A stretch of 64,000 nt of DNA from an uncultured Gammaproteobacteria bacterium (GCA_964463925.1 CAYXDV010000004.1:13080-77079); one strand, 5' to 3'. Shown: positions 13,636 through 62,234, counted from the stretch's first letter. Notes: generated by a model not told the origin, from the sequence alone. Made by a program: numbers and translations.

Positions 13636-13638
13636 TAT

Positions 13639-42289: not shown

Positions 42290-43795
42290 ATGACTAAAGG
42301 TAAAAAACTATCAATTAGTATTAGCTACCCACCTCTAGAAACCAACAAAGGTACTGCATTTTTGTCACAAAACAGACAGTTCCAATGGACAAATACAGGC
42401 AATGTAATATACCCAGTTATCCCAGCTTATGCTGCTTCTCTCTTAAAAGAAAACGGATATCATGTCTTTTGGGATGACGCCATTGCAGAAAAATTAACCA
42501 AAGACCAATGGCTTCAGCGTTTATTAGACAACAAACCAGACGTTATTGCAATTGAATCTAAAACACCTACGATCAAGGGGTATTGGCGGCTTATTGATGA
42601 AATAAGACAATATCAAACAAAATCTTGGCAGCCAACAATCATATTGTATGGAGATCATTTAACTGCCCTACCAGAAGAGTCCCTAAACAATAGTTCAGTT
42701 GATATTGTCTTAACTGGTGGAGACTATGACTTTATGTTGTTAAACCTTTGCAATCATTTATCAACCGGCTCGGATTTAGAGCCTGGCTTTTACTACAAGG
42801 ATGACAGCGGAAAAATAAAAAATACTGGACCATATGCCCTAAAACATCACAATTTAGATTCTTTACCTTTTATTGATAGAGATCTTACTCGCTGGGAGCT
42901 TTATGCTTATCACAATGGTAACTACAAATACACTCCTGCCACATATCTGATGACTGGACGTGATTGCTGGTGGGGTAAATGTACCTTTTGTTCTTGGACC
43001 ACCATCTTTCCCGGTAAAGGATATCGTTTTTTTAGCCCCAAAAGAACCCTATCTGAGGTAAAGCATCTAGTAGAAAATTATGGGATCAGAGAGATCTTTG
43101 ATGATGCTGGAACTCTTACACCAGGCGCCTGGATACACGAATTCACAGCAGGATTAATAACTTCAGGCTTGCATAAAAAAGTAAGATATGGAGCCAATAT
43201 GCGCTTTAATGCTGTTGGGGAAAAAGAATATGCAGCTATGGGCCGGGCAAATTTCCGCTTCATGCTTTATGGACTAGAATCTAGTAATCAAAAAACCCTG
43301 GATATGCTCGAAAAGGGCACAAAAACAGAAGATGCCAGAAAATCCTTGTCTTTGGCCAAAAAGTACGGAATGGAACCACATTTGACAATTATGATCGGCT
43401 ATCCTTGGGAAACCAGACAAGATGCCCTAAATACTTTAGAAGAAGCAAGGCGCTTGTTTCGCGATTGTCTTGCAGATTCCATGCAGGCCACTATCGTGAT
43501 CCCTTATCCTGGAACACCTCTCTTCAAACAATGCCAAGAAAACGGATGGCTTTTAACAACCGACTGGGATGACTATGATATGCGTCAAGCTATCATGAAA
43601 TGCCCAATGGATACTCAAGAATTGAATATCTTGGTTCAAAGCCTATTTAAAGGTGTGCTTACTCCTAACTTTTTATTTAAAAAAATTGCTTCTATTCGCA
43701 ACCCAGATGATGTAAAGCACCTAGCAAGTTATGCTTACAAATTCGTAAAAAAACTTTCAGATTTCCCAGTTGGACATGTTAATCCAAGTCGCTAA
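42290..43795 (+). CDS. B12-binding-domain radical SAM enzyme
   Basis: N-terminal Rossmann-like B12-binding region (DVIAIESKTP); radical SAM cluster cysteines GRDCWWGKCTFCSW, a non-canonical Cx4Cx2C spacing; about 500 aa, typical of class B radical SAM enzymes. Confidence 0.75.
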   Translation: MTKGKKLSISISYPPLETNKGTAFLSQNRQFQWTNTGNVIYPVIPAYAASLLKENGYHVFWDDAIAEKLTKDQWLQRLLDNKPDVIAIESKTPTIKGYWRLIDEIRQYQTKSWQPTIILYGDHLTALPEESLNNSSVDIVLTGGDYDFMLLNLCNHLSTGSDLEPGFYYKDDSGKIKNTGPYALKHHNLDSLPFIDRDLTRWELYAYHNGNYKYTPATYLMTGRDCWWGKCTFCSWTTIFPGKGYRFFSPKRTLSEVKHLVENYGIREIFDDAGTLTPGAWIHEFTAGLITSGLHKKVRYGANMRFNAVGEKEYAAMGRANFRFMLYGLESSNQKTLDMLEKGTKTEDARKSLSLAKKYGMEPHLTIMIGYPWETRQDALNTLEEARRLFRDCLADSMQATIVIPYPGTPLFKQCQENGWLLTTDWDDYDMRQAIMKCPMDTQELNILVQSLFKGVLTPNFLFKKIASIRNPDDVKHLASYAYKFVKKLSDFPVGHVNPSR

Positions 43796-44777: not shown

Positions 44778-45756
44778 TATTTTGCTCCCAATTTACAACG
44801 GTGCCAAATATTTGCCAAAAACCATAGAAAATATATTGAGCCAAGACTTTTACGAATTAATCATTCAAGATGATTGTTCTACTGACAATAGTTTAGAAAT
44901 TGTTAAATCCTACAATGATCCGCGTGTCAAAATTTTTACTAATTTTCATAATCTAGGCTACCCCAAAAATCTAGAAAAGGCCCGTCTAAATGCAAGGGGA
45001 GACTTATTATTTTTAATGGGACAAGATGATTTGCTAAAAATAGGGACAATAAAAAAAATCCAAAAAATTTTTTCTGGTAATCCAAACATTGGAGCTCTCA
45101 CTCGATCATATTATTGGTTCGAAAATGATCCGAATTCTCCCAATCGGGCTAAGCCAAATTTAAAACAAGACCAAATAGTTTCTCTTTCCAGCAGTTATAC
45201 CAAACTCCAAGTTGTGATCGATTCATTAGATCAACTTTCAGGCCTAACTTTTCGCACAAAAAGCTTTCCCGGCAAATTCCATGAAGATGTTTTTCCTTGC
45301 CATATTTATCCCTTCCTAAAAATTCTAACCAAGCAACCAGTTTACTTTTTAGCCGATTACTGTGTTGCCGTAAGAACTGAAAGTAGTCAAACTCGCTCTC
45401 ATCCAGAAATCTACAAGAAGTCCCCCTTGCTAAGCTGGGTAGAAATGATTCAACAAACCTTTTTTAAAACCCCAAATCTTTCCGCAAAAATCATCAAAAA
45501 TTTTGTCGCCAAAAATTATTTTGGTCTTTTTCAAATAAAAAATTATGGTACCTATTGGCAATTTTTAAGAGAAAGCTTTTATCTAATAAAATATAGAATA
45601 AAAAATATTTTTTCTCCAACCTTTTGGCTAATTTTTCTATTTCTCTTATTTACTCCAAAAAAAGTGAGTATATTTTCTGTCTACTTTTACAAAAACAAAT
45701 TCCTAAAATCAAGATTAAGTTCTATAATACCAATCACTTATGTCACTGCTAGCTAA
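44758..45756 (+). CDS. GT2 glycosyltransferase
   Basis: [26 protein letters not shown]...[12 protein letters not shown]. Confidence 0.7.
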
Positions 45757-46276
45757 ATTCATTTTGTTTTTAGCAAACATCCCGGCTAGAATTAAAGGCC
45801 TAAAATTTTCTAAGAATAGTTATTTAGTCCCTCCTTACGATTTCTATCAAAATAATTTATCTGATGTTTCAATAGGCCGGAATGTTTTGATAGGCAAAAA
45901 TTCTTGGCTTGACTGCCTACATAATGGAAAAATTTGTATTGGCGATAATACGGCAATTGGCCGAAATGTAGTTATCTCAAGCAATAATTCAATTAAAATA
46001 GGGGCAAACTGTTTGTTTTCCTACAATGTTTCCATAATTGATCATGATCATATACTTAATTCCAGTAGCAATTCACCTATAAACAGCGGAATAACCAAAG
46101 GTTTACCCATATCTATTGGGGATAACACCTTTTTAGGTGCACACAGTTTTATCTTCAAAGGTGTTACGCTGGGAAAACATGTTGTTGTTGGTGCCAACTC
46201 AGTGGTCACAAACAACTTTCCAAGTTACAGTGTAATTGCAGGAAATCCAGCTAGATTAATCCGAAAAAACAAATGA
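45740..46276 (+). CDS. Hexapeptide-repeat (left-handed beta-helix) sugar O-acetyltransferase, WbbJ/Mac-like
   Basis: Tandem hexapeptide repeats [13 protein letters not shown] / [13 protein letters not shown] / [13 protein letters not shown], then DHDH. Confidence 0.8.
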
Positions 46277-47439
46277 AGTCTAAAAAACCAAATGTCTTTA
46301 TATATGGTTTTTTACCAAATTACCCAAAATATGTGTTAAGTGGCAGCGACAGTCGTTTTTTAAACATATTTAGCCGCCTACATACAAAGTTGAATCTGCA
46401 TTTTTTAGGAACCAAAAACTTCAAGTCCAGATTAGACAATTTCTTCAATGTCAAAAACTATACTTTTATTAAAATATCTTGCCCCTTTACTTATACGAAT
46501 CAAATAGACTTCAGTTTCTATAGTTTTTTATTGTTTGTTTTTTCAATACCAAAATTGATTTTCTACAAATATCCAATTAATAGTTATCATTACGCCACTT
46601 CTGACCTGCCTTGGGATACACTTCCTTGTTTATTTGCAAAAAAATTTCATAAAAAACAGCTATGGATTCAGTGTATTCATCATTTATATCCACATTGGTC
46701 AACCAGAGAAGGCAATAAATTAATCAGTTTTTGCGGTTACCATATTCAGCAGCTTTCACTTTTTTTAGCAAAACATAATGCCGACGGTGTTATTGTTGTA
46801 AACCCAAATCTGAAAAATTCACTTGAAAAAATCGGTTTTAGATCAAATGTTATTTTTGTAAACCAAAACGGAATTTGCACACCACCAAAAACTCCGAAAA
46901 AACACAACAAAGATCAGGTGATTTATCTGGGTCGCCTCTCAAAATCAAAAGGCATAGATCAATTACTTGAGTCATGGAGCTACGTTACCAGGCAAATTCC
47001 AAGATCACTTTTATATTTAGTTGGTCACTATCTCAATTCCGACTTTGAAAAATACCAGCAAAAAATAAAAAAGCTAAACATAGACAAAAAAGTAGTTTTC
47101 ACAGGTTATGTCTCAGAGTCACAAAAGCACAGACTGTTGTCCCAAAGTAGTTTGTTTGTATCTTTGTCAAACGAAGAAGGGTTTGGGATTACAATTTTAG
47201 AAGCGATATCGCATCACCTTCCGATAATTTTAAAGCCGCTAAATAACTATTATCCAATATACGGAAAATGTCCTATATATACAAAAAAAGAAGACGGCGC
47301 TCAGGAGATTGCTAACAAAATAATTGATACTCTTAAAAATCCCAAAATAAACAAGCAAGAATATCAAAATCTCTTAAACAAATACTCGTGGCAATCAATA
47401 TCTGGCAATGAATTTAAAATATTAAAGAATATAAAATGA
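46273..47439 (+). CDS. GT4 (glycosyltransferase group 1) enzyme
   Basis: C-terminal [23 protein letters not shown] motif. Confidence 0.7.
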
Positions 47440-48236
47440 AAACAGTTCCAGCAAACATTTACAATCACAAATATTTTAAACGATACATTGACCAGAGTAT
47501 TACCGACCCAAAATATATATCCAAAAAAAACCAAGAAATATTAAATTATTTGATATTAAACCCAGCTAAAAAAATTGTCGACTTTGGTTGTGGAGCCGGA
47601 GTTTTATCTATATTAATGGCTAAATCTTTTAACTCAAAAATAATCGGACTTGATTATTCTATGTCGGCTATAAAAATTTGCAAAGAAAACTTAAAGAAGG
47701 CATCCAAAGAAAAACTAAAAAACATACCCATTTTCACACTTGCAACTATTAGCCAAGTCCCCAAACAAAAAAACATTGACCTTATTATCCTAGCTGATGT
47801 AATCGAACATCTAACTGATAAAGAAATCGTCAAAATTTTTACGATTTTTAAAAGCTGGGGTAAAGAATGCAAAATACTAATACATACTGATAATAATTTT
47901 TATCTAAAAACTATTGGCAGATTATTGTACTATTTGAATTTCATAATTTATCCAGCATCTCGTAAAAAATTACTACAACAGAAACATGAAGATGAGATTA
48001 TGCATATCAATCTAACCACCCCAAAAGAACTCAGACAAAAATTATACAGTCTTGGTTATGAACAAAATGAGCTATTCTTCCCAAAAGTTACCAAAAATGC
48101 CATCAAGATCCAGTTAGGGATCTTTTCTAAAGTCCCATTTCTAGTCAATTTTTGCCTCTTCCTACTTAAAAAAATGACTTTAAAGAATTTTTTTTATCCA
48201 AGTTTCTACGCAGTATATTCCCTTCCTAAGTCGTAG
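47436..48236 (+). CDS. Class I SAM-dependent methyltransferase
   Basis: Motif I KIVDFGCGAGVLS; post-I acidic LDYS; motif II/III LILADVIEHL. Confidence 0.7.
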   Translation: MKTVPANIYNHKYFKRYIDQSITDPKYISKKNQEILNYLILNPAKKIVDFGCGAGVLSILMAKSFNSKIIGLDYSMSAIKICKENLKKASKEKLKNIPIFTLATISQVPKQKNIDLIILADVIEHLTDKEIVKIFTIFKSWGKECKILIHTDNNFYLKTIGRLLYYLNFIIYPASRKKLLQQKHEDEIMHINLTTPKELRQKLYSLGYEQNELFFPKVTKNAIKIQLGIFSKVPFLVNFCLFLLKKMTLKNFFYPSFYAVYSLPKS

Positions 48237-50019
48237 AACTCAATTGTATTCTTGCTTGGTTAAAGTTGGGATCAATTTGCAATGCTTTCGTAAATGCCTT
48301 CTTTGCCTCTTCACTCTTTCCTATCTGTTTATACAAAACACCAAAAATATAATGGACTAGGGGATTATTTGGTTGATATTTCAAAAGAGTATTGCCATAA
48401 GAAAAAGCCTCCTCTACTTTGTTTTCTGACATAGCAACTTGAATAAGTGCAACATAACTTTGATACAAGCCTGGATTATATTTTAAGGCAGTCAGATAAC
48501 TATCTCGTGCCAAGTCCAATCTGTTTATCTTAAAAAAGATGTTGGCTCGATTATGATAAGCATCTGCATAATCATTTTTTACAACAGTAGATTGGGTAAA
48601 GCCTTTAACTGCATTTTCATACTGTTTTAATTTATCGTAATCATCTCCAATATTATTCCAGGCATTATGAGAATTCGGAGAAACCTGACAAGTATTAACC
48701 CACAGATTATGATTAGTCTGCCAATTAATATTTCGCAAAAAAATTCTGTAACCAAAAAAAGATATCAGAATAGCTGTTAGCAACCACTTAAATAAATTTA
48801 GCTTTTCAGAAAAATTTTCAAGCATCAGGGCTAAAACAATAGCGATACCCAATCCTCCTAAAAACATATATCTCTCGGCCACCATCCAGCTAACTTTTAA
48901 CGGGGTCATTGATCCGGCAGAAACAATAAAAACAAAGGCCATTGCAAAAGCCAAATTTATATTACCCCTTAGATAAAAGTAAAAGGTTGTCAAAACATAC
49001 AAAACTAAAACTAACCAATTTAGCCAATTCGGAATAACCTGAAGCATTGTGTGATATAAAGTCAAGTCAATAGGGAAAAGAATGAGTTGTAAATATTTTG
49101 TAACAGACGTTGGATATTGAAACCATGGTTCATAAAATTTATCCCAGACACCACCACCGCTAGCGGCAACAACACTCAATCTTGTCATAATCATCGGCAA
49201 AAATATCAATACGCCAACTGCCAACACAGAAAGAATTGTAGTAACCACCTTTATCAGTTCACTTTTACTTTTAGCACCAAAACAAAGCCAGTATAGTAGA
49301 AAAAGTAGCAGTACAACTAAACCTCTCGGACCAAAACAAAAACATGCAAAAACCACCGAAGCCACAAGAATAGTCATATTAACAAGATTTCTTTTTTTAA
49401 ACCATTTTAAAAATGCCAAAAAACTAGCCAAAAAGGATATTGCCCCTAGCAAATATGGTTTACCCGAAATCCAAGTAACAGCTTCTACATTAATCGGCAA
49501 GAAAGCAAAAATTAGGGTTGCCGTAAAAGCTAGCTTTTCGTTGTAAATTTTAGTAACTACAATAAACGCCAAAAGTAAAACCAACTCAAACAAAAACAGA
49601 TTAGTCAGATGGAAAGGGATAGGGTTATTTTTTCCAAAAACTGCAGCAACAAAAAAATTCACCACAGCTGAACCAGTGAAAGTAACTCCGGGATCTGAAA
49701 AATAAGCAGTCGAAAGTATTGTTTGACTGTTTATGATAGTAGCATAGTCGTCAGACACAAAATCAGCTTTAATCCCATTAAAATATACAATAAGCGACAA
49801 AGCACAAATTAATAACAGCTGCTTCCAGTTGCCAGATATCACTTTGGCTATTGAGTCATTTTTTGGAAAAGTCGAATCAATAGGCTCAAAAACAGATTTA
49901 AACTTTGCCGCACGTCTTTCTTTTTTACTCAAACCCATGTAGCTAGTATAATCAAAACAATGCTGCTTATCATCAACGAAATAAAACTTCTGTTTAAATA
50001 TCACGAATTGCTCCTGCAA
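48226..50019 (-). CDS. TMTC-like membrane protein: N-terminal polytopic PMT_2/DUF1736-type domain plus C-terminal TPR repeats (true start possibly 49938)
   Basis: About 10 TM helices, followed by WNNIGDDYDKLKQYENAVKGF...AYHNRANIFFKINRLDLARDSYLTALKYNP...YIFGVLYKQIGKSEEAKKAFTKALQIDP, which are TPR units. Confidence 0.7.
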   Translation of the reverse strand: MQEQFVIFKQKFYFVDDKQHCFDYTSYMGLSKKERRAAKFKSVFEPIDSTFPKNDSIAKVISGNWKQLLLICALSLIVYFNGIKADFVSDDYATIINSQTILSTAYFSDPGVTFTGSAVVNFFVAAVFGKNNPIPFHLTNLFLFELVLLLAFIVVTKIYNEKLAFTATLIFAFLPINVEAVTWISGKPYLLGAISFLASFLAFLKWFKKRNLVNMTILVASVVFACFCFGPRGLVVLLLFLLYWLCFGAKSKSELIKVVTTILSVLAVGVLIFLPMIMTRLSVVAASGGGVWDKFYEPWFQYPTSVTKYLQLILFPIDLTLYHTMLQVIPNWLNWLVLVLYVLTTFYFYLRGNINLAFAMAFVFIVSAGSMTPLKVSWMVAERYMFLGGLGIAIVLALMLENFSEKLNLFKWLLTAILISFFGYRIFLRNINWQTNHNLWVNTCQVSPNSHNAWNNIGDDYDKLKQYENAVKGFTQSTVVKNDYADAYHNRANIFFKINRLDLARDSYLTALKYNPGLYQSYVALIQVAMSENKVEEAFSYGNTLLKYQPNNPLVHYIFGVLYKQIGKSEEAKKAFTKALQIDPNFNQARIQLSSTT

Positions 50020-50760
50020 TTGGCTGGCAGAGAAATAAAATCACGATACAAACAATCAATTCTTGGCTATTTTTGGGTAATTATCCAGCCATTATCCCAA
50101 TTGTTAGTCATGACTTTTGCCTTTTCAGTAATTTTAAAAGTTCAAACATTTGCAACAGGTAGCATTCCCTACATAATATTTCTTTCTGTTGCCCTTCTTC
50201 CTTGGAATTTATTTGTAAATAGCCTCAATTCTGCTTCCGGATCACTGGTAGCAAACGCAGGTTTAATTTCCAAAACATACCTTCCAAAATCAGTTTTTAT
50301 ATTGGCAACTTTAATCGCCAAACTAGTTGATTTCGGATTCTCACTTTTAGTTCTTATTCTATTTTTTATTTGGTACCAGCTTCCAGTACTATCTAGCTTT
50401 TTATGGATTGTACCAATTTTTTTACTTCAAAATATTTTCACTTTAGGACTCTCATATTTCTTAGCAACAGCAAATCTAATTTACAGAGATATTCAATATC
50501 TGTTGTCGCTAATATTGATGCTTTGGATGTACTTTACCCCAATTTTTTATTCAATCGACAACATCCCGCTTAAATTTCGGTTTATTTTTCAATTAAACCC
50601 AATGTCAGTAATTGTTAATGCCTATCGTCAAGTAATTCTTGCTGGCGGAAGTCCAAACTATAGTAGTTTGTTACTATGTACCATAGTTTCTTTTTTGACT
50701 TTATATCTTGGCGTTAAATCATTTAAATCCGCAGAACCAACTCTAGCTGACCATGTCTAA
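49960..50760 (+). CDS. ABC-2 type polysaccharide/teichoic-acid exporter permease (Wzm/TagG-like)
   Basis: REIKSRYKQSILGYFWVIIQPL N-terminal motif; 6 TM helices; translationally coupled to the downstream ATPase. Confidence 0.75.
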   Translation: MLLIINEIKLLFKYHELLLQLAGREIKSRYKQSILGYFWVIIQPLSQLLVMTFAFSVILKVQTFATGSIPYIIFLSVALLPWNLFVNSLNSASGSLVANAGLISKTYLPKSVFILATLIAKLVDFGFSLLVLILFFIWYQLPVLSSFLWIVPIFLLQNIFTLGLSYFLATANLIYRDIQYLLSLILMLWMYFTPIFYSIDNIPLKFRFIFQLNPMSVIVNAYRQVILAGGSPNYSSLLLCTIVSFLTLYLGVKSFKSAEPTLADHV

Positions 50761-51439
50761 TCAAAACAATGTACCACCTACCGTAATAAAATTTGAACAT
50801 GTAACTAAAGTTTTTAGCCTTCAAAAACAAAAAACTTTCAAAGAATTCCTCCCAGCTCTTGCTTCTGGCAAAGATACAAAGACAACTTTTACTGCCCTAA
50901 ATAATATCAGTTTTGAAATTAAAAAAGGAGAATGTGTCGGTATCGTTGGGCCAAACGGTTCAGGTAAATCAACAATTCTAAAAATAATTGCTGGAGTTAC
51001 CGCACCCACTTCTGGATCAGTTTTTGTCAATGGAAAAGTATCGCCTTTAATCGAATTGGGTTCAGGAATGCATCCAGAGCTTTCCGGACGGGAAAATGTT
51101 TTTTTAAATGGGGCCATTTTGGGACTTAGTCAAAAGCAAATCCATGATAGATTTAAAGAAATTGTTGATTTTGCCGAACTATGGGACTTTATTGATGAAC
51201 CAATCAAGCATTATAGTAGTGGAATGTTCATGCGACTAGCATTCTCTGTTGCCATTCATGTTGACCCCGAGATATTGTTAATTGACGAGATTTTGGCTGT
51301 AGGTGATGCCGCCTTTCAGGACAAATGCTTCAAGAAAATGGAAGAGTTTAAAAAACAAGGCATAACCATGCTATTGGTATCACATAATACAAAACAAATT
51401 GCAGATTACTGCGATAGAAGTCTATCCTTCGATAGGTAG
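50753..51439 (+). CDS. ABC exporter ATP-binding protein (Wzt/TagH/KpsT-like), short form without a C-terminal carbohydrate-binding domain
   Basis: Walker A GPNGSGKST, signature YSSGMFMRLAFSVA, Walker B LLIDEILAVGD; only 228 aa. Confidence 0.85.
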   Translation: MSNQNNVPPTVIKFEHVTKVFSLQKQKTFKEFLPALASGKDTKTTFTALNNISFEIKKGECVGIVGPNGSGKSTILKIIAGVTAPTSGSVFVNGKVSPLIELGSGMHPELSGRENVFLNGAILGLSQKQIHDRFKEIVDFAELWDFIDEPIKHYSSGMFMRLAFSVAIHVDPEILLIDEILAVGDAAFQDKCFKKMEEFKKQGITMLLVSHNTKQIADYCDRSLSFDR

Positions 51440-51448
51440 ATAATATTT

Positions 51449-54400
51449 ATGAAGATTAAAAAACAAACAATCGATAAACCAAATCCAAAAATATGGGATC
51501 TTGTTTCTAAAAAATACACATTCAAAATCACAGACAGCGATCTTGAAATAGGGAGTTTTTTGCTTGATTTTCTTGGTAAGAATAAAAAGGCAAAAAAACA
51601 AACTATTGCCGAATTTGGTTCTGGAAGTGGACACATATCGGCAGTTTTAGCTCAGAAGAAATTCAATACAACTTTAGTTGATTTTAGTACGGAAGCTCTT
51701 AAAAAATCCAAATTATTGTATTCCAAACTTAATCTTAGTGGAAATTTCATAAATGCAGATATTTTAAACTTCCACAAAAATACATCCTATGATTTGGTAT
51801 GGAATAGTGGAGTTATGGAGCATTTTAACGACAAAATGCTTTTAAAAGCATTTGAAGAGATTTACAAACACACAAATTCCTATTTTATTTTTATTGTTCC
51901 AAATCCAAAATCAATCCCATATTTATTATGGAGATCGAAATTAATATGTGAGAAAGAATGGGATTTTGGATATGAATATTTAAGGGATAATTATGAAGAA
52001 TTCATAGAGCATTCAGGGTTTTTATTACAAAAAAAAACCTACATTGGAAAAAACATCTCCAGTTGGCAGTTAACGCAAACAACAAATGAACAATCTCTAA
52101 AAGACTTTTATAAAGAAATGTATCAGGAGGATATAATTACACCTGAAAATTATTATTTAACAGTATACGTATGTAAAAAAAATAATAACTTCACAAGTAA
52201 AGATGCAAAATTTATTTTAGATGAGGATACAACAAGAAAAACAAATTTATTTCTTGAAATTGTAAATCACTCTAATCTCAAAGAAAAAACTAATGCAGTA
52301 GATAACTTAAAAAATGATTTAGAAGATCTAAAAATAAAAAACCAGCAAAAAGATAAGTGTTTAGAAAACCTCAAGGGAGATATTGATATGGCAAACCTAA
52401 AAATAAGTCAATTATCTGTGGCCTTGAACAAAATATATAATTCGAAAACTTGGAGATTACTTTATTTGTACAAAAAATTTGCTGAAAAAAGCAAAAATTG
52501 CCTAAAATTATTAATACCAATAAAAACAAGAAAGGCAATAGTTTCAAGTGTAGAGCTGGTCAAATTGACTAGAACCATCAAAAACAAAATACCAGAAATT
52601 GTAATTTCAGACTGGCAAGATCATTTAAAGAGTCAATATAGTAAACAGATAGTAGATTACATCATCTTTTCTGTAATTGCTTGGGATTTTAGATATCAAA
52701 GACCACAACAATTATCTAAGTTTTTGGCACAAAAAAATGAAGGTACAAGGGTTTTTTACATAAAAAACGAATTCTTAGTATCTCCATCTGCCAAGGCCAG
52801 CCCATCGATCAGAGTAGAGAAAAAAGAAAGCATGGTCTACGAAATAACTCTCTCTGCATCCAAAAATCTCTTCATATATTCTGATACTCCAACCATGAAA
52901 GATAAACAAACTATCTTTGAGTCTTTAAAAACTCTTATATATGAAGCAGGGATAATCAATCCAATTGCCGTTATCGATCACCCTTTTTGGGCAAATCTTT
53001 TAGAAAGTTATGGTATGCCTGTTATCTACGACTGTATGGACAACCATCAGGGTTTCCTTGAAAATGATAAAAGGTTGGCAGTCTTGGAGCAAGAATTATT
53101 CACAAAATCAGATATTGTGCTTACAACTTCCAAGTATTTGAGTAATATGGCCAAAAAGGCAGGTTCAAAATCAGTTAGTTTGTTACCAAATGCAGGAGAT
53201 TATAAACATTTTGCAAAAGCGCTTAATCCAAAAAATTTTACAAGACCAGCAGATCTACCTAGAAACAAAAACCCAATAGTTGGCTACTACGGGGCAATCG
53301 CAGAATGGTTCGACACAGAAATACTTAGTGATGTAGCCCAAAAAAACAAAGACAAAACGATTGTCCTGATCGGTTCTGTTACCAACAAAAAGGTAGTAGA
53401 CTTGACAAAAATCAATAAAAACATCTATTTATTAGGCGAAAAGCCATATTCCGAATTACCTGCATATTTGGCACATTTTGATGTTTGTATAATTCCTTTT
53501 AAGTTGACAGAATTAATAAAAGCAACACACCCTGTAAAAGTCTTTGAATATTTAGCTGCAGGCAAGCCAATAGTCGCAAGCAGAATGCCAGAAATATCTA
53601 ATTTACACAAAGTTGTTACTTTTGCCAGCAAAAAAGACTTCTCAGAACAAATTAATTTTCTTCTAAAGAGTGGTAACCAAAAGAGTAAAAAAGATAGGCA
53701 AAAATTGGCTCTAAAAAACACATGGATAGAAAGGGCAGATAAACTTACAAATTTAGTAATGAAAAAATTTTTTCCAAAAGTTTCTATTGTCGTACTCTCG
53801 TATAATAAGCCAGAAATGCTTAAAAAAACTTTGGATAGTATTATCCAAAGATCATATTATTCAAATTTAGAAGTCATTGTTGTAGACAATGCATCTAACA
53901 AAGAAACAATCAGTCTTCTAGAAAATTATAAAACAAATCCGATAGTGAAAGTAATATACAATAAACAAAATTATGGGTTTGCAAAAGGCAACAACATTGG
54001 TCTAAAAGTATCAACAGGAGATTATATTGTTGTTTTGAATAATGATGTGATTATAACCCCCGGTTGGATAAGCCGTCTTATTTTTCATTTGTCCAAAAAT
54101 AAAAAAACAGCAATCGTTGGTCCTGTAACCAATAACATAGGGAATGAAGCAAAGATAGATATAACATATGATGCGGAAAATGCTTCTGAACTAGAAAAAA
54201 AGTCCAGAGAGTATACTTCAAAACACTGGAACCAAAGCCTTGGTGTAAATAATCTTGCGGCTTTTTGCTGGATTTTCTCTAGAAAAACTTATAAAGAATA
54301 TGGAGGGTTTGACGAAAGGTATGGGATGGGACTTTTTGAGGACGACGATTACTGCTACATGATAAAAAAAGCAGGACTAAATCTAAAAATCTCAGATGAT

Positions 54401-54544
54401 GTATTTGTTCATCATTTTGGAAGCATGTCATTCAAACAACTTAATAAAGAAAAATACCAAAATTTATTTAACGACAATAAAAGAAAGTTTGAAACCAAAT
54501 GGAAAATTAAATGGAAAAAACATGTGAATAGAAATATTAATTAA
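51449..54544 (+). CDS. Multidomain glycan assembly protein: N-terminal SAM methyltransferase, coiled coil, GT4 domain and C-terminal GT2 domain
   Basis: 1031 aa; MT motif I AEFGSGSGHIS; coiled coil about residues 265-340 (NLKNDLEDLKIKNQQKDKCLENLKGDIDMANLKISQLSVALNKIY); GT4 region (GYYGAIAEWFD...VFEYLAAGKPIVAS); GT2 region (VSIVVLSYNKPEML...VVDNASNKET...LNNDVI). Confidence 0.8.
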   Translation: MKIKKQTIDKPNPKIWDLVSKKYTFKITDSDLEIGSFLLDFLGKNKKAKKQTIAEFGSGSGHISAVLAQKKFNTTLVDFSTEALKKSKLLYSKLNLSGNFINADILNFHKNTSYDLVWNSGVMEHFNDKMLLKAFEEIYKHTNSYFIFIVPNPKSIPYLLWRSKLICEKEWDFGYEYLRDNYEEFIEHSGFLLQKKTYIGKNISSWQLTQTTNEQSLKDFYKEMYQEDIITPENYYLTVYVCKKNNNFTSKDAKFILDEDTTRKTNLFLEIVNHSNLKEKTNAVDNLKNDLEDLKIKNQQKDKCLENLKGDIDMANLKISQLSVALNKIYNSKTWRLLYLYKKFAEKSKNCLKLLIPIKTRKAIVSSVELVKLTRTIKNKIPEIVISDWQDHLKSQYSKQIVDYIIFSVIAWDFRYQRPQQLSKFLAQKNEGTRVFYIKNEFLVSPSAKASPSIRVEKKESMVYEITLSASKNLFIYSDTPTMKDKQTIFESLKTLIYEAGIINPIAVIDHPFWANLLESYGMPVIYDCMDNHQGFLENDKRLAVLEQELFTKSDIVLTTSKYLSNMAKKAGSKSVSLLPNAGDYKHFAKALNPKNFTRPADLPRNKNPIVGYYGAIAEWFDTEILSDVAQKNKDKTIVLIGSVTNKKVVDLTKINKNIYLLGEKPYSELPAYLAHFDVCIIPFKLTELIKATHPVKVFEYLAAGKPIVASRMPEISNLHKVVTFASKKDFSEQINFLLKSGNQKSKKDRQKLALKNTWIERADKLTNLVMKKFFPKVSIVVLSYNKPEMLKKTLDSIIQRSYYSNLEVIVVDNASNKETISLLENYKTNPIVKVIYNKQNYGFAKGNNIGLKVSTGDYIVVLNNDVIITPGWISRLIFHLSKNKKTAIVGPVTNNIGNEAKIDITYDAENASELEKKSREYTSKHWNQSLGVNNLAAFCWIFSRKTYKEYGGFDERYGMGLFEDDDYCYMIKKAGLNLKISDDVFVHHFGSMSFKQLNKEKYQNLFNDNKRKFETKWKIKWKKHVNRNIN

Positions 54545-56000
54545 CAACTATCTTTTGTATCAAAAATTCAGGATTATTTTCCGGAAACGACACTTCATTC
54601 TGCAAGCTATAACCAAACGAATTAATCAACTTCTCAAAATTTTTGCCGCAGGTTACATTTTCGTCACCACTAACAACTCTTACATATCTATATTCAGCAT
54701 TAACTAGATAGGTTTGTCTTATCCATTCTTGTGTCTTTGGTTCAAGATTTTCAGTACAAAAAAAGGGCCAATAGTCATAATATTTGTTCTTTATATGATC
54801 AAAAGCAATTAGCTCATTATTTATTCCCCAATCTACTGATACAAATTTACTATCACTTTTTTTTACATGCTCGACCAAACTAAACACACTCCGAGACCAA
54901 TATTTATTAAGCAATCTGCCGTTATTCAAATTGTAAATAAAAAAAACATTTATTGCAAAAAATAAAAATGGAAGAAATTCAAAAATAAATTTAGGAAATA
55001 GATCTATCATAACATAATAAGCATATGGGAAAAGCATGTAAAAATGCCAAGAAGCTCCAGCTTTATTTGTCATCAATATTTGAAAAAAGATCCCAACAAA
55101 GAACATTCCATTCAATACTTTTACATCACAAATATTCCTTCTAATTTTTAAAACATTTAGTAAAAAAACGTAAGTCAATAGGAGTAAAACAAACACAGAT
55201 GAAACTATCTGGGGTACTGAGAACTGTGGTTTGTACAAATAATCATAAATGCTAAGACCTGAAAAGAAATGCAAAAAAGATTCACTCACGGTGACAAAGC
55301 GACTGACAAAAGATGTATTCGATGTCAACTCTGTGGTAAGTCTAAAATTTGAAAAAATAGTAAAAAAAAGAACATATGGGATTAAGAAACATTTAACAAT
55401 GAAAAAAAGATCCGAGAGTGTTCCTCTCCTCACAAAAAATGCATACACAACACAAACAACAAAAACTACATTTATGAACCAAATAAAATTTAGCTTGTTG
55501 AAAACTCCTAAAGACAGTAAAAAAGATAATAAAAAAGGCGATACTTTTTTTATCTCAGACATATTTATAAGCAAAGCAAATATGATTGTTCTAAGAAATA
55601 AATCGATTATCACTGGACCAAAGTCAGTTATAGACAAAAAAAGGATCGTGGGATTTAACAAAAAAGTTGCAACGAGGAAAAAAGTATATTTTTTTTCTAC
55701 CACACGCAAATTTAATAGTGTAAAAATCGTAACAATGAACAAACACAAAGTGGGTATTCTGATACTCAACAAACTAACGCTAAATATTTTAAAAATAAAA
55801 AAATACAAAGCAGATTTAAGAGCTCCGATGTATGGCATCAACATTATCGGAAAACCTAACAAACGTTTAAACACAAAATCGTTTGTTACTCCTCCTAATG
55901 CTGCATTTATCCAAAAAACTTCATCGTAATGTATGCCGATCGTGTTAAACCATAAAAATACTAAAACAAAAAAAGCAATTACCAATATAAAGTACCTCAT
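54537..56000 (-). CDS. PMT_2/ArnT-like GT-C glycosyltransferase
   Basis: HYDEVFWINAA...PIMLMPYIGALKS...SLLSIRIP loop followed by more than 10 TM helices. Confidence 0.55.
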   Translation of the reverse strand: MRYFILVIAFFVLVFLWFNTIGIHYDEVFWINAALGGVTNDFVFKRLLGFPIMLMPYIGALKSALYFFIFKIFSVSLLSIRIPTLCLFIVTIFTLLNLRVVEKKYTFFLVATFLLNPTILFLSITDFGPVIIDLFLRTIIFALLINMSEIKKVSPFLLSFLLSLGVFNKLNFIWFINVVFVVCVVYAFFVRRGTLSDLFFIVKCFLIPYVLFFTIFSNFRLTTELTSNTSFVSRFVTVSESFLHFFSGLSIYDYLYKPQFSVPQIVSSVFVLLLLTYVFLLNVLKIRRNICDVKVLNGMFFVGIFFQILMTNKAGASWHFYMLFPYAYYVMIDLFPKFIFEFLPFLFFAINVFFIYNLNNGRLLNKYWSRSVFSLVEHVKKSDSKFVSVDWGINNELIAFDHIKNKYYDYWPFFCTENLEPKTQEWIRQTYLVNAEYRYVRVVSGDENVTCGKNFEKLINSFGYSLQNEVSFPENNPEFLIQKIVVN

Positions 56001-57652
56001 AATGGCATGGAACCTTCCAACAAAACAATTCTCTGATATTTATACCCCAAAAAATTATCAATTTCTTTTTCATTTTCAATTTTGCCACCTAAGTTTATAA
56101 TATTCAGCTTACAATCATTTAAGTTCACAGGTGAAACCATACTATAAAAGTATACATTTTTCATTTTTACTTTACCGCTGATTACAGCTCGTTGCATATT
56201 CATATATTTTTCAGACCCTGTCAGTTGACCATATGATCTTTTGTCTATGTTGTAAACCGGCATTGAGCTCAAATCTGAAACAACTAAATACCCAAGTGAA
56301 GGCAAAGAACAATTCAAATAAATCGTTTTATCTTTAGTCTCATCGACATTTTCTCCTGTTATCAATGTATTTTCAAATAGAAACTTTTTCTGAGAAATAT
56401 AGTTACTCTGATTGTCAATATAGCTACCCCTCCAAGACCAATCATAAGTTAAGGCAGACATATATGTGTCTTTTATATTTAAAAGAAAAAAGATAAAAAA
56501 GAAGAAAGATATCAATAAATTATGACTTTTTTCACTAACCACAATCTGATACACTGCAGATGCAACAACTCCAGAAAAAAATTCCATTGCAATAAAATAT
56601 CTAGAATATCCAAACAATAATGACCATGTAAAGAAACATAGTAAACAGTAGGCAGACAATATTAATAGTGTTTTGTTTATTTTCTTTGGTAAAAACAAAA
56701 TGGCAACTACAGTTGTCAAAAAAAAGTATGTTAGTCTGTTATCAAAATAAAATCTTGATAGTTCAGAAAGTCTATTCTGGTGCAGTATGGAAAAAACAGG
56801 CCAAAAAATAATCTCAACGACGCTTCTTCCTCCAAAATTACCATTCTGAAAATTTTCTCTTAAGGCATAAGGTGAATTAAAAAATGCATTATAAAATGGG
56901 AAAAAGGGATTACTCGATTTTGTAAAATTCACAAATAAAAAATGAGACGAAGGCAATAAAATCAATAACACGCACATAAACAAAGATGAAATCCCTATCT
57001 TCCTGTCTAGAAAAAAATAAAATAGAAAAAAAATAAAAGGAAGTGTGTAGATAATATTTGTATTTTTCAAGAAAAAAGATAGGCCGAAGAAAAATGATGA
57101 GAAGAATAAGAATTTATTCTTGGTAAGGGTGAGGAACAAAGAAAAGAAATACAGGGCGACAAGGACAATAAAAGCTGACGGCAGATCATTGTAGTAAGTA
57201 GATATTTGAGACAAAGCCTCAAAATTAAATATTGCCAATATAAAAATAAATAAGGCGAAGAAACTGTTAAAAAAATATTTGTTTATGTTCAAAACAAGTA
57301 TGATTTTTATTGAAAGAAGCACAATCATAAAATAAACTATCAAGTTAGATACGGTTCCTAATCTATACCCAAGTAGTTTTCTAAACAGATATCCAAAAAC
57401 TTCAATAAATGGAGGGAAATTCTGTAGACCGGTAGGAAAAAAATCTACATTGCCGGCTATTGAAAAGAACTTCCATGGAAGAAATAGGTGATAATTAATG
57501 GTATCAAAAGATAAATCTGGGTATAAGAATTTATTTAAAAAAACCGAGAGAGGAAGAACGAAGCAAAAAACAAAAAAAACTACAAAAAGCGTGGATGATT
57601 TTAAAAAAAATCTCTTTTTGGCTAAACAAATCGATACTTTATTAGTGTCCAT
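55997..57652 (-). CDS. Large polytopic membrane protein, putative GT-C glycosyltransferase
   Basis: 551 aa, more than 12 TM helices; downstream (minus strand) of a DPM1-like GT2. Confidence 0.45.
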   Translation of the reverse strand: MDTNKVSICLAKKRFFLKSSTLFVVFFVFCFVLPLSVFLNKFLYPDLSFDTINYHLFLPWKFFSIAGNVDFFPTGLQNFPPFIEVFGYLFRKLLGYRLGTVSNLIVYFMIVLLSIKIILVLNINKYFFNSFFALFIFILAIFNFEALSQISTYYNDLPSAFIVLVALYFFSLFLTLTKNKFLFFSSFFFGLSFFLKNTNIIYTLPFIFFLFYFFLDRKIGISSLFMCVLLILLPSSHFLFVNFTKSSNPFFPFYNAFFNSPYALRENFQNGNFGGRSVVEIIFWPVFSILHQNRLSELSRFYFDNRLTYFFLTTVVAILFLPKKINKTLLILSAYCLLCFFTWSLLFGYSRYFIAMEFFSGVVASAVYQIVVSEKSHNLLISFFFFIFFLLNIKDTYMSALTYDWSWRGSYIDNQSNYISQKKFLFENTLITGENVDETKDKTIYLNCSLPSLGYLVVSDLSSMPVYNIDKRSYGQLTGSEKYMNMQRAVISGKVKMKNVYFYSMVSPVNLNDCKLNIINLGGKIENEKEIDNFLGYKYQRIVLLEGSMPL

Positions 57653-58332
57653 GCTGCATCAAAAAAATCTGAAAATTTAATTTTTTTACCTTGGTCAACA
57701 TGTCTCGGATTATAGATAATTGGCACCTCGTGTATTGATTCTCCAGATCTTAAAACTTTAGATGTAACCTCAGGACAAAATTCAAATCTCTTCGATACTA
57801 AATTTAGAGAATCTAACAACTTTTTATCAAACATTTTGTAACAAGTGGGTTCATCAGTAATATTTGAACCATATAAAAAGTTTGTTAAGTGTGTAAGTAA
57901 CAAGCCACCCATATAAAAACTCAGGCCGGAATACTGCTTGTTTTGTCTTTCTAATCTACGAGACCCGTATACTACTTTCACTCCCTTTCTTTTCATAACA
58001 TCAAGCATTTTTATAAAATCTTTCGGATCATATTCCATATCTCCGTCTTGAACAACAACAACATCACCTTTCGAATGTTTAAATCCCGTCCTAAGCGCAG
58101 AACTTTTTCCTTTGTTAATTTCGTGGGAGATCAGAGTAAAATCGATCTTTTTACTTTTTTTGAGATCAGTCAATAATTTTAAAGAAGAATCTGTTGAACC
58201 ATCGTCAATTACTATGATCTCTTTTTTCACACTGCCAAAATCTACCGCATTTACCTTGTTCAAGACATCCAATACAGTTCTTTCCTCATTAAAAACTGGT
58301 ATAACTATCGAAATCGTTTTAATATTTTTCAT
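57622..58332 (-). CDS. GT2 polyprenol-phosphate glycosyltransferase (DPM1/GtrB-like)
   Basis: ISIVIPVFNEERTVLDVL...IIVIDDGSTDSS...VVQDGDMEYDP. Confidence 0.85.
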   Translation of the reverse strand: MKNIKTISIVIPVFNEERTVLDVLNKVNAVDFGSVKKEIIVIDDGSTDSSLKLLTDLKKSKKIDFTLISHEINKGKSSALRTGFKHSKGDVVVVQDGDMEYDPKDFIKMLDVMKRKGVKVVYGSRRLERQNKQYSGLSFYMGGLLLTHLTNFLYGSNITDEPTCYKMFDKKLLDSLNLVSKRFEFCPEVTSKVLRSGESIHEVPIIYNPRHVDQGKKIKFSDFFDAAWTLIKYRFV

Positions 58333-58895
58333 TTTACAAAAACAATTTTACTGTTTAACCCAAACTGGAACAATTCATAGTTAGATACACTGAAGCCATT
58401 ATTTTTACCCAGTAATAAAACATCACTTTCAGAATAATACTTTTTATGATCTTTAATTTCGTCTTTATTTATTATGTTTAATGAAGCCAAAAGCTCCAAA
58501 AGCGGTTTTGAAAGTTGAGTTGGTGTTGTCATAACAATCTTACCTTTCGTTTTTAAAACACGAGAAAATTCTTTAAAAAGCAAATCTACCTTGTTAGGGT
58601 CAATATGTTCCAAAACGGCTAGCATAAAAATACTATCAAAATAATCATTAGTAAATGGCAATTTATCAATAAAATTAAACTTCTTCAAAACCAAATTATT
58701 AAAACTAGTATCGTCAACATCGTAGTCTAGACCATAACCTAACCTAATACTTTGACTAATTTGTTTCAAAAAATATGCTTGAGAGCCGCAACCAAAATCT
58801 AAAACGCAACTATTTATCTTAGATTCATTCATTATTTTCGATAATCTAAGTTTTGCAATCAGCTTGTCAAAAACATTAAAATCTTTTGTCCCCAT
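58329..58895 (-). CDS. Class I SAM-dependent methyltransferase
   Basis: Motif I CVLDFGCGSQAY; LDYD acidic residue; IFMLAVLEHI. Confidence 0.7.
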   Translation of the reverse strand: MGTKDFNVFDKLIAKLRLSKIMNESKINSCVLDFGCGSQAYFLKQISQSIRLGYGLDYDVDDTSFNNLVLKKFNFIDKLPFTNDYFDSIFMLAVLEHIDPNKVDLLFKEFSRVLKTKGKIVMTTPTQLSKPLLELLASLNIINKDEIKDHKKYYSESDVLLLGKNNGFSVSNYELFQFGLNSKIVFVK

Positions 58896-60280: not shown

Positions 60281-61204
60281 TTATAAAAACACAAATAACC
60301 CCGATAGAAGTGCTCCTAACAACTGAATTACTCCTATGAAGGCAGATAAGGCTAACAACGGCTCTACTGCAAATCCCATCGGAACAAAAAATAATTTATA
60401 CATTGCCTCTCTTGCTCCAAAACCACCAAAACTGATAGGGAATGCCAAAAAAAGACTGATTATCGGCATGTACACATATATAGCCAGAATTGGCAATCCT
60501 GGAACAAAAAAAATGGAAGAAAAAACAATTGGTAGAATCCAAACAATTTGAGCAAATACTGAAACCATAACAGCTATAAAAATCGTTTTTCTTTGTTCCT
60601 GCCTAAATGCTTGATCAATCCTAATCAGTTTATCTAAATATTTATTTTTACCAAGAAATCGTTCAAAATCAAATGCCAGTAAAAGCAAATAAAAAATAAT
60701 TATGCCCACAAAAAGCATGGTTATCATTAACTCGGCTTCAAATACGAGCTTGTATTTGAAAAATTTAGAAATTATCAAAGATATGAATCCCATTATCCCT
60801 AAAGTAGACAAGCCTATCACTCGGTCGACTAAAATAGAAGCTAAAATTTTTCCTTTTGGAATATTCGCAAAGCTTGAAGCATTTTTTACCCACTTTATAC
60901 CATCGCCAGCCAGTGGCGTGGGCAAGAACATAGAATAAAAACTAGCCACATTAGCATTTTTGTACATTGTTAGAAGCTGTCTAAAACTAGGTTGTCCAAA
61001 CAACACAATTCCCCAGCGAACCACAGCCAAAAAACCAACCAAAAAAGTGTAAATCAACAAAAAAATCACGAACCAAAGCGGAACTTTTGAGATTCGATTA
61101 AAAACACTAACAAAATCAACAGTTTTGTATACATAGTACAAGGCCACTGCCGATAAACCAAGCTGTACCACACGATTGTTTAAAAGATTTATAATTTTAT
61201 GCAT
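60281..61204 (-). CDS. Flippase-like domain membrane protein (LPG-synthase-TM/UPF0104-like)
   Basis: 307 aa, 7-8 TM helices; N-terminus LGLSAVALYYVYKTVDFVSVFNRISKVPLWFVIFLLIYTFLVGFLAVVRWGIVL resembles the flippase-like domain pattern. Confidence 0.5.
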   Translation of the reverse strand: MHKIINLLNNRVVQLGLSAVALYYVYKTVDFVSVFNRISKVPLWFVIFLLIYTFLVGFLAVVRWGIVLFGQPSFRQLLTMYKNANVASFYSMFLPTPLAGDGIKWVKNASSFANIPKGKILASILVDRVIGLSTLGIMGFISLIISKFFKYKLVFEAELMITMLFVGIIIFYLLLLAFDFERFLGKNKYLDKLIRIDQAFRQEQRKTIFIAVMVSVFAQIVWILPIVFSSIFFVPGLPILAIYVYMPIISLFLAFPISFGGFGAREAMYKLFFVPMGFAVEPLLALSAFIGVIQLLGALLSGLFVFL

Positions 61205-62234
61205 GCGAATATTAGCATTATCACATATTTTCCCTCCAGCTATCGATGGTGGCAGTCAGATTGTCTATCAAGCTGCTAAAAGTTTGCAGGATAGGGGACA
61301 CATCCTTCATTTTTTAAGCAGTAGTCATGCTTCCACAGACACATTTATACAAAATCCACCAGGGCGAGTATTAAGAAAGCTTGGTCAACCACCAGGACCT
61401 ATTTTGAACCCCCTAAAAATCATCAAAGCAATATTCTTTAGGCCGCAAATTATCATCGCTGGACCGCTACCTACTTCTATAATTTTTTATGCCAGATTTT
61501 TACAGCTTATGACTGGGTCAAAAGTCATATTTATACCTTGTTTTCACCCTGATAATCAGGATTTTTACAAAAAAGGTTCACTCGATTTGCTAAAACACTT
61601 TTCGCTTTGGACCTTTACTGATTTTGAAGCGGCAATATTAAAACCTTATTCACTGGATATTAAAACTCATTTTCCTGGTATCTTGCAATTGTTTTTTGAC
61701 GCCAAAACTATTCCAAAAATAATTACAAAAAAACGTAAAATATTATTCTTAGGCAATTTTGCCGCCCACAAAGGTATCTTGCCACTAATCCAATCTGTTA
61801 AATATCTACCTAAAAGCTTTTATTTGACACTGTGTGGACAACCGACACTTTACAGTAAATCCTTGGAAAAATTTTCTTCTAACTCTAGGTTAAAAATAAT
61901 ACCTCAAAAGTACTCAGCCAAAGAGGCTATCGTGCTTTTAGACCAGCACGACTTATTAGTTTTGCCTTCTCACGAAGAAAGCTTTGGTTTGGTCTTTGCC
62001 GAGGCATTGTCTAGGAAAGTTCCAGTCTTAGGGTTAAAACAATCTAGTACCACCGAGGTGTTTTCAAAATTAAAAACTGGTTATCAATTAAATAATTTAG
62101 GCCCAAAAGAACTAGCAACTGCAATTAAGTTAGCCGCAGAACAAAAAGTTACCCCCGCAACCTACACACTAGTACACCAGCTTTGTTCATGGGAAAATGT
62201 TGCTATATGGCTAGAAAGGGAATTCTTATCTTAG
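61203..62234 (+). CDS. GT4 (glycosyltransferase group 1) enzyme
   Basis: MRILALSHIFPPAIDGG (typical GT4 N-terminus) and ESFGLVFAEALSRKVPVLG. Confidence 0.75.
   Translation: MRILALSHIFPPAIDGGSQIVYQAAKSLQDRGHILHFLSSSHASTDTFIQNPPGRVLRKLGQPPGPILNPLKIIKAIFFRPQIIIAGPLPTSIIFYARFLQLMTGSKVIFIPCFHPDNQDFYKKGSLDLLKHFSLWTFTDFEAAILKPYSLDIKTHFPGILQLFFDAKTIPKIITKKRKILFLGNFAAHKGILPLIQSVKYLPKSFYLTLCGQPTLYSKSLEKFSSNSRLKIIPQKYSAKEAIVLLDQHDLLVLPSHEESFGLVFAEALSRKVPVLGLKQSSTTEVFSKLKTGYQLNNLGPKELATAIKLAAEQKVTPATYTLVHQLCSWENVAIWLEREFLS

Follow-up and report, generated by a model that had tools for sequence, protein, structure and literature searches.

Several bacterial surface glycans that leave the cell through an ABC transporter are built and terminated by a single multidomain protein. 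In WsaE of Geobacillus stearothermophilus, an N-terminal 2-O-methyltransferase caps the S-layer glycan and two rhamnosyltransferase domains elongate it; the genes are ordered wzm-wzt-wsaE with overlapping codons, and the slg cluster includes a gene for a tetratricopeptide repeat (TPR) protein, wsaA (PMC2943079). WbbB of Klebsiella O12 and Raoultella is presented as the prototype of a single protein with a terminator, a coiled-coil ruler and a two-module polymerase at its C-terminus (PMC11231755). In ORF6 of Klebsiella O7 a methyltransferase(-kinase) at the N-terminus and two glycosyltransferase modules at the C-terminus flank a central coiled coil; the terminator function of the protein was shown experimentally and the strategy was called widespread across bacteria (PMC11231755). 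Transport-elongation-termination (TET) operons of Pseudomonas syringae include fused glycosyltransferase/O-methyltransferase genes in some isolates (PMC7820976). We analysed a 64,000-nucleotide stretch of DNA (GCA_964463925.1 CAYXDV010000004.1:13080-77079; hereafter the window), recorded under an uncultured Gammaproteobacteria bacterium, in which the ABC-exporter genes wzm and wzt are followed by a gene for a 1031-residue fusion of a methyltransferase domain, a heptad helix and two glycosyltransferase (GT) modules. The locus is a new example of the known transport-elongation-termination design from the candidate phyla radiation (CPR). Coordinates are in window numbering and residue numbers are those of the fusion protein.

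We favor, with moderate confidence, a reading of the three genes as a self-contained transport-elongation-termination unit for an ABC-transporter-dependent surface glycan, in which the fusion protein builds, measures and methyl-caps the chain. The genes share one orientation, are tightly packed and are flanked on both sides by genes on the opposite strand, and therefore form a compact three-gene operon (Table 1). The ATG start of wzt overlaps the stop of wzm by 8 nt (ATGTCTAA), the fusion reading frame starts 9 nt past the wzt stop, the fusion stop overlaps the end of a convergent gene and the gene upstream of wzm is divergent. The nearest NCBIfam models for wzm are Wzm/RfbD-like (3e-20) and KpsM-like (1e-14), both below their equivalog cut-offs, and those for wzt are TagH-like (1.9e-64) and galactan Wzt/RfbE-like (1.3e-52), both far below theirs.

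The fusion protein was modeled with AlphaFold2 from a 38-sequence alignment, with a mean predicted local distance difference test score (pLDDT) of 86.9. The domain order that an earlier note on this DNA had read from the sequence, namely methyltransferase, heptad helix, GT4 and GT2 directly after wzm-wzt, is borne out, with the open reading frames where that note had placed them. The N-terminal domain matches the Pfam families Methyltransf_25, 11, 31, 12 and 23 (Methyltransf_25 at residues 37-155, 3.4e-12). The S-adenosylmethionine (SAM)-binding residues, without which the earlier note would have abandoned its proposal, are present and are kept in homologues of six phyla: E55-F-G57-S-G59-S-G61 (motif I, E-x-G-x-G-x-G), D78, D104 and E124-H125. 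Against the PDB, a profile of the domain retrieves only generic class I methyltransferases (top match 3cc8, 1.8e-18), and WbdD is absent from the best 60 matches; specific homology to WbdD is therefore not claimed. The methyltransferase ends at about residue 245 and the next helices (260-274 and 281-330) begin only some 15-35 residues later, too soon for a kinase to fit in, and Pfam and NCBIfam give no match of the fusion to a kinase family.

The GT-B module matches the NCBIfam model TuaH across the whole domain (residues 414-763, 7.4e-29, below the equivalog cut-off) and the Pfam families Glyco_trans_1_4 (9e-11) and Glycos_transf_1. Its closest folds in the PDB by Foldseek are those of MshA, PimB', BshA and sucrose-phosphate synthase, with template modeling (TM) scores of 0.68-0.72 relative to the target, and residues Q417, R418, D531, N581, Y613, G615, K697 and E700 are invariant in 38 homologues. 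The GT-A module matches Pfam Glycos_transf_2 (residues 776-1002, 2.6e-31), K4 chondroitin polymerase in the PDB by phmmer (1e-16) and ppGalNAc-transferases by Foldseek; its invariant residues are D813, D866 (NND motif, DXD-like) and E964-D965-D966-D967, and in the model its fold spans residues 778-1018. Searched as a whole against the PDB, the protein gives generic GT2 matches, one methyltransferase and nothing for the GT-B module with phmmer, and generic GT4 and GT2/GT27 folds only with Foldseek. Hydropathy analysis of the fusion protein reveals no transmembrane or other hydrophobic segment.

Table 1. Features of the wzm-wzt-fusion operon, predicted elements of the fusion protein and the divergent neighbor
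Feature	Position (nt)	Strand	Residues or size	Remarks
wzm, ABC-2 permease	49960-50760	+	266 aa	Pfam ABC2_membrane 1.4e-18; about 6 hydrophobic segments
wzt, short-form ABC ATPase	50753-51439	+	228 aa	Sole Pfam match ABC_tran, 7e-24
Fusion gene, soluble multidomain protein	51449-54544	+	1031 aa	Unbroken open reading frame
Class I SAM-dependent methyltransferase domain, putative chain-capping module	51485-52180	+	13-244	Rossmann fold in model
Single 50-residue heptad helix, putative coiled-coil spacer/ruler	52289-52438	+	281-330	AlphaFold2 model
Cationic amphipathic helix, putative membrane-association/docking element	52445-52513	+	333-355	AlphaFold2 model
Two further linker helices before GT-B	52520-52633	+	358-373, 383-395	AlphaFold2 model
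GT-B fold glycosyltransferase module, GT4-like/TuaH-like	52655-53770	+	403-774	
GT-A fold glycosyltransferase module, GT2	53774-54502	+	776-1018	
Divergent neighbor, polytopic membrane protein with C-terminal TPR repeats	48226-49938	-		Pfam TPR_1/2/8; about 10-12 hydrophobic segments

Compared by domain and gene order, the locus resembles that of WsaE (strain NRS 2004/3a) in having a methyltransferase and two glycosyltransferase domains on one polypeptide directly after wzm-wzt; the slg cluster likewise has a TPR protein gene nearby and the WsaE host is without an outer membrane (PMC2943079). The two activities of WsaE are described there as both alpha-L-rhamnosyl and in need of the rml genes of the cluster, whereas here a GT-B module is joined to a GT2 module and the six-frame open reading frames of the window hold no RmlA, RmlB, RmlC or RmlD homologue, although such genes could lie elsewhere in the genome. 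The window fusion has a heptad helix, whereas the cited work on WsaE mentions no coiled coil. ORF6 of Klebsiella pneumoniae O7 shares with the window protein a methyltransferase, a coil (putative in the window protein) and two glycosyltransferase modules in one protein of a wzm/wzt cluster. It differs in its 1414 residues, in an extra kinase and an immunoglobulin-like module between methyltransferase and coil, in its methyl-phosphate cap and in having two GT2 modules rather than one GT-B and one GT2. In WbbB the terminator is a beta-Kdo glycosyltransferase of family GT99, unlike the class I methyltransferase found here; its polymerase modules founded GT102 and GT103, and its Wzt has a cap-binding module. 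The WbdD and WbdA pair of Escherichia coli O8/O9a (Klebsiella O5/O3) and the P. syringae TET operons follow the logic proposed for the window locus, with a methyl(-phosphate) cap, a coil spacer and a multi-module polymerase encoded beside wzm-wzt, but in these systems terminator and polymerase are usually separate, the coil is long, the terminator bears a membrane anchor and a Wzt module gates export. With the Klebsiella O1/O2a Wzm-Wzt and TagGH-type exporters the locus shares a short ATPase without a carbohydrate-binding module; those systems lack a coiled-coil terminator that sets chain length (PMC11231755).

Relatives were collected by scanning GTDB with a sequence pattern, each species being represented by a single genome, and counts on N-terminal modules and wzt were taken from the best 80 loci. 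At least 564 loci encode relatives of the GT4-GT2 core, spread over Proteobacteria, Acidobacteriota, Chloroflexota, Firmicutes, Planctomycetota, Patescibacteria and others. Both core motifs, D[CY][MI]D[ND]xxGF and G[MFL]FEDDDY, are found in the window protein (DCMDNHQGF at residues 528-536 and GLFEDDDY at 961-968), which is 33-51% identical to core members from more than ten phyla. A homologous methyltransferase, detected with an iterated hidden Markov model (HMM) of the domain, is fused N-terminally in 26 of the best 80 loci. The order methyltransferase-linker-GT4-GT2 was confirmed with Pfam in Stenotrophomonas maltophilia, Pseudomonas rustica, Ampullimonas, Lysobacter, a Desulfuromonadaceae metagenome-assembled genome (MAG) and a Patescibacteria MAG, and is also seen in Saccharibacillus. 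Other loci carry a pyruvyl transferase (L066), a weak sulfotransferase-like match (L028) or an extra GT4 (L020) in its place. The GT-B/GT-A pair is a widespread, conserved bimodular core, usually placed right behind wzm-wzt, with an exchangeable N-terminal partner, and the modules exchanged represent chemistries already familiar from glycan caps. Of the best 80 loci, 47 have a wzt homologue, which immediately precedes the fusion in 21; the wzm-short wzt-fusion arrangement itself recurs in the closest relatives (L001, L081 and L083). This synteny and the swapping of the N-terminal module among typical capping chemistries both speak for the proposed unit, and so do WsaE, WbbB, O7 ORF6 and the TET operon as published precedents backed by biochemistry. 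The earlier note had judged the architecture unusual and distinct from WbdD/WbdA or WbbB-type proteins, and neither judgment holds: WsaE, WbbB, ORF6 and the TET operons precede it, as do the core loci counted above with their fused methyltransferases, and WbbB (O12) and O7 ORF6 already unite a terminator, a coil and two glycosyltransferases.

The window derives from a metagenome-assembled genome, and in a homologous locus (L069) the methyltransferase and the glycosyltransferase appear to be split, so that the 1031-residue frame might be taken for a join of separate methyltransferase and glycosyltransferase genes made in assembly or annotation. We give this next to no credence. The frame contains no stop or frameshift, and both junctions at which the earlier note had advised caution (52200-52650 and 53700-53800) align unbroken with full-length homologues. 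More than ten independent full-length colinear homologues come from different samples and phyla; the fusion is genuine because such homologues exist. Two of them (P0002 and P0003) are 47-50% identical to the window protein over 99% of its length, the protein of Saccharibacillus endophyticus is colinear at 35% identity over 99% of the length, and an identical protein is present in the protein database on a 118-kb NCBI contig. What looks like a split in L069 stems from the assembly, which has a gap of N letters within a heptad tandem repeat. Misassembly of the fusion was accordingly rejected as effectively refuted by the colinear homologues.

The helix at residues 281-330 is uninterrupted in the AlphaFold2 monomer model, with a pLDDT of 55-80, and is preceded by a shorter helix (residues 260-274). 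Heptad periodicity was assessed with a score of our own; the sequence was shuffled 200 times and the threshold put at the 95th percentile of the resulting maxima. Only windows covering residues 272-314 of the fusion protein exceed this threshold. Applied unchanged to 80 homologues, it flags a stretch immediately ahead of the GT-B module in 36 of the 56 that have a long N-terminal extension and none of the 54,870 residues in the catalytic GT4-GT2 parts. The heptad helix is real and stands at the family-typical position; judging from the model, an oligomeric coiled coil is putative. The earlier note had been right about the presence of the helix and had overstated its length, which is about 50 residues and reaches the proposed 75 or so only if helix 260-274 is counted. 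An ideal helix of 50 residues would measure about 7.4 nm. Across homologues the linker from methyltransferase to GT-B varies from 85 to about 420 residues between conserved flanks, as would be expected for a spacer or ruler module; in the window protein it has about 155 residues, and the putative coiled coil of about 50 residues is among the family's shortest linkers. In L069 (2344-3700), from a Rugosibacter MAG, this linker consists of perfect AERDSAV heptad tandem repeats, at which the assembly breaks. Expansion or contraction of such repeats could change spacer length rapidly. No tandem repeats were found in the window fusion gene, which thus differs from L069 in having no heptad tandem repeat.

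The heptad helix is followed by a cationic amphipathic helix (residues 333-355 in the model, with the amphipathic stretch at 336-353), whose hydrophobic moment, 0.54, is the second-highest in the protein and whose net charge is +5. Its motif, S-x-x-W-[KR]-x-L-x-x-Y-K, is kept in the A1 and A2 consensus, and the preceding linker is not conserved. From these properties we infer a membrane-docking element.

The 228-residue Wzt is indeed the short form without a carbohydrate-binding module that had been described, with ABC_tran as its only Pfam match. An HMM built from 32 Wzt C-terminal domains detects no Wzt_C-type domain in any of the six frames of the 64 kb (best E-value 0.28), and long Wzt proteins beside proteobacterial homologous fusions match Wzt_C at 1e-15 to 1e-18. 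Of the loci that combine an N-terminal extension with a detectable Wzt (n = 39), Wzt_C is present in 29 and missing from ten; for the methyltransferase fusions (n = 23) the figures are 18 and five. The module-less set includes L001, L081, L083, Saccharibacillus and an Eubacteriales MAG. The pairing of a terminator-type fusion with a module-less Wzt is the only departure of the locus from the textbook model and makes it mildly atypical. The suggestion in the earlier note that chain termination and export may be coupled differently follows solely from this missing module.

The idea of a terminator, spacer and polymerase in a single polypeptide is plausible for the window protein, in which the domains are intact and all catalytic motifs are conserved. 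The GT-B module is of the retaining and the GT2 module of the inverting type by family, which suggests a repeat with two different linkages. At the cytoplasmic face of the membrane the two modules would alternate and extend a polyprenol-linked glycan with such a two-linkage repeat. The fusion would oligomerise through the heptad helix and sit on the membrane by means of the amphipathic helix, and the heptad helix would keep the methyltransferase some 7 nm away from the polymerase. The protein lacks a kinase domain, and its cap would therefore be methyl alone, like that of E. coli O8 or WsaE. Export of the lipid-linked chain by Wzm/Wzt would follow, and because Wzt is without a carbohydrate-binding module export is probably not gated by recognition of the cap through Wzt. 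The exported glycan would be passed to its final acceptor, wall or protein, and might be decorated by nearby GT-C-type enzymes.

Several points weigh against this scheme. A fused methyltransferase does not by itself prove a ruler; the helix has only about 50 residues and a pLDDT of just 55-80 in a monomer model, the heptad score is home-made, and the ruler prototypes WbdD and WbbB are described with an extended coiled coil. All studied terminated systems have a cap-reading module on Wzt (PMC11231755), or have it 'typically' (PMC11127046), and its absence from Wzt and from the rest of the window weakens the coupling of termination to export. The window also has no initiating phosphoglycosyltransferase or nucleotide-sugar genes. 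Alternatively, the methyltransferase of the same machinery would decorate internal or terminal sugars without stopping growth and the helix would serve only to oligomerise or scaffold the protein. Chain length would then depend, on the pattern of Klebsiella O2a, on a promiscuous module-less transporter to which polymerisation is obligatorily coupled, and on the ratio of transporter to polymerase. This explanation is unlikely in our view but deserves serious consideration. The short Wzt, the lack of any Wzt_C-type module in the window and the shortness of the helix all suit it; the Klebsiella O1/O2 transporter, also without the module, couples extension to export and exports chains with or without a terminal group (PMC11231755), and the ten of 39 extended loci with a module-less Wzt suggest that the pairing is a stable state. 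Against it stand the exchange of the N-terminal module among typical capping chemistries and the heptad linker, variable in length and conserved in position across the family, which is a published hallmark of terminators (PMC11231755). Moreover, the 18 of 23 methyltransferase fusions that are paired with a module-bearing Wzt imply a recognised cap in those loci.

A different product is conceivable: instead of a lipid-linked surface heteropolymer, the system would make a wall polymer of the teichoic- or teichuronic-acid type, its exporter being TagGH-like and its glycosyltransferase TuaH-like; an LCP (LytR_cpsA_psr) enzyme would attach the product to peptidoglycan, and a non-sugar substituent would be the target of the methyltransferase. 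The NCBIfam models nearest to Wzt (TagH, 1.9e-64) and to the GT-B module (TuaH, 7e-29) point in this direction, but both matches fall far short of the equivalog cut-offs (scores of 218 and 101 for cut-offs of 538 and 550). The window encodes an LCP ligase (11427-12443) and the host belongs to the CPR, whose members are not known to have an outer membrane; there is, against this, no CDP-glycerol-type glycerol- or ribitol-phosphate transferase in the window and no match to TagB or TagF. N-acetylmannosamine (ManNAc) is a common component of wall polymers, and a UDP-N-acetylglucosamine (UDP-GlcNAc) 2-epimerase gene (wecB) lies within 10 kb in 38 of the best 80 loci (rml genes in 13). This linkage hints that many family members make ManNAc-containing polymers; such repeats are plausible in the relatives, and the window operon has lost the epimerase gene or never had it. 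We consider a wall polymer of this type improbable, and the alternative mostly concerns the class of product and its acceptor, so that it is compatible with a polymerase-capper mechanism.

The interest of the locus lies in its module-less exporter and short spacer, not in the fusion. The architecture answers no open question, being known from WsaE, WbbB, O7 ORF6 and the P. syringae TET operons. If the transport-elongation-termination model is true, a well-studied way of making surface glycans of defined length gains a representative from the CPR/Patescibacteria. Wider interest attaches solely to a putative capping enzyme beside a transporter without a cap-reading module, a situation found in about a quarter of comparable loci, which can be used to ask whether capping and export are uncoupled or are coupled by another route. 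A bolder proposal is that the CPR and several lineages without an outer membrane systematically pair terminator-spacer-polymerase fusions with a module-less Wzt, the cap going unread by the transporter and a second coupling operating independently of a Wzt module. We put it forward tentatively and think it doubtful. Were it correct, capped chains might be handed over directly via the amphipathic helix, be picked by Wzm or go unselected, and the very short spacer of about 7 nm might set unusually short chains on an ultra-small cell.

Open reading frames of at least 120 residues in the window were scanned with Pfam. Besides SecA, the window encodes SerRS, BipA, RF-1, FtsX and the LCP ligase. The top named relatives of SecA are from Candidatus Shapirobacteria, Woesebacteria and Microgenomates, with 65-67% identity, and the closest relatives of the fusion protein are also from Patescibacteria; the host is therefore, judging by these sequence relationships, a Microgenomates-type CPR (Patescibacteria) bacterium. 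CPR bacteria are taken to lack an outer membrane. The earlier note had discussed the locus in terms of O-antigen, which is the wrong frame for such a host: SecA places the contig in the CPR, an LCP ligase is present and the Pfam scans reveal no lipopolysaccharide genes in the window. Nor is there, in the 64 kb, a gene for nucleotide-sugar synthesis, an initiating phosphoglycosyltransferase or a kinase. A literature search joining Patescibacteria and Wzt returned no match.

Upstream of wzm, the gene for the TPR-membrane protein was listed with a TTG start at 50019, which would produce a 60-nt overlap with wzm; the ATG at 49938 is more plausible. In L081 and L083 the same TPR protein is likewise encoded on the opposite strand, upstream of wzm. 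Among promoter-like sites the best one (TTTACT-17-TATAAT, 49924-49952) ends 8 nt before the wzm ATG, and a leaderless or near-leaderless transcript could result, but such sites are as numerous as expected by chance. Counts from the promoter and terminator scan of the region equal the shuffled expectation and are uninformative.

In three related loci (L081, 5393-11201; L083, 5105-10910; L082, 454-5886) the TPR-membrane protein and CofD genes (both on the minus strand), wzm and a short wzt are kept. In these relatives a UDP-GlcNAc 2-epimerase gene stands directly ahead of the methyltransferase-GT4-GT2 gene (in L081 and L083 between it and wzt) and an Acyl_transf_3 gene comes after it, and L082 has an additional Stealth (CR1/CR2) gene at that place; the CofD, epimerase and acyltransferase genes of these relatives are absent from the window. 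A downstream block, LPG_synthase_TM-GT4-DUF192-GT2, is common to L081 and the window (60281-63443), and the segment between the operon and this block is therefore a variable cassette. Beside two homologues, a locus on an Azospirillum plasmid (L084) encodes rfbCBDA and wecB along with a separate methyltransferase and a long Wzt; tblastn against plasmids returned only 'glycosyltransferase' annotations.

The operon is part of a near-continuous glycan-assembly region of about 45 kb (16430-63443); if the model holds, it shows that even a very small, reduced genome sets aside a large contiguous stretch for envelope glycosylation. The region contains at least 17 GT2 genes, about six GT4-type genes and at least 12 genes for polytopic membrane proteins (7-13 hydrophobic segments) that are PMT_2/GT-C-like or unassigned, together with a Wzx-like flippase (22441-23874), a B12/radical-SAM enzyme (42290-43795), a hexapeptide acyltransferase (45740-46276) and two stand-alone methyltransferases (47436-48236 and 58329-58895). 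Just upstream of it, beside FtsE/FtsX-like genes (12898-14511), lie genes for two Peptidase_C39-like proteins (8801-9409 and 14516-15700), the LCP ligase and a DUF11-repeat protein (15769-16374), which may serve in wall attachment or the processing of surface proteins. Repeated adjacent pairs (16430-18552, 18554-20807 and, on the minus strand, 55997-58332) combine a small GT2 protein (236-252 residues) with a polytopic membrane protein, either PMT_2-like or unmatched in Pfam. Such pairs resemble the polyprenyl-phosphate-sugar synthase and GT-C enzyme of three-component systems for extracytoplasmic glycan glycosylation (PMC11127046) and, by this analogy, could decorate the ABC-exported polymer.

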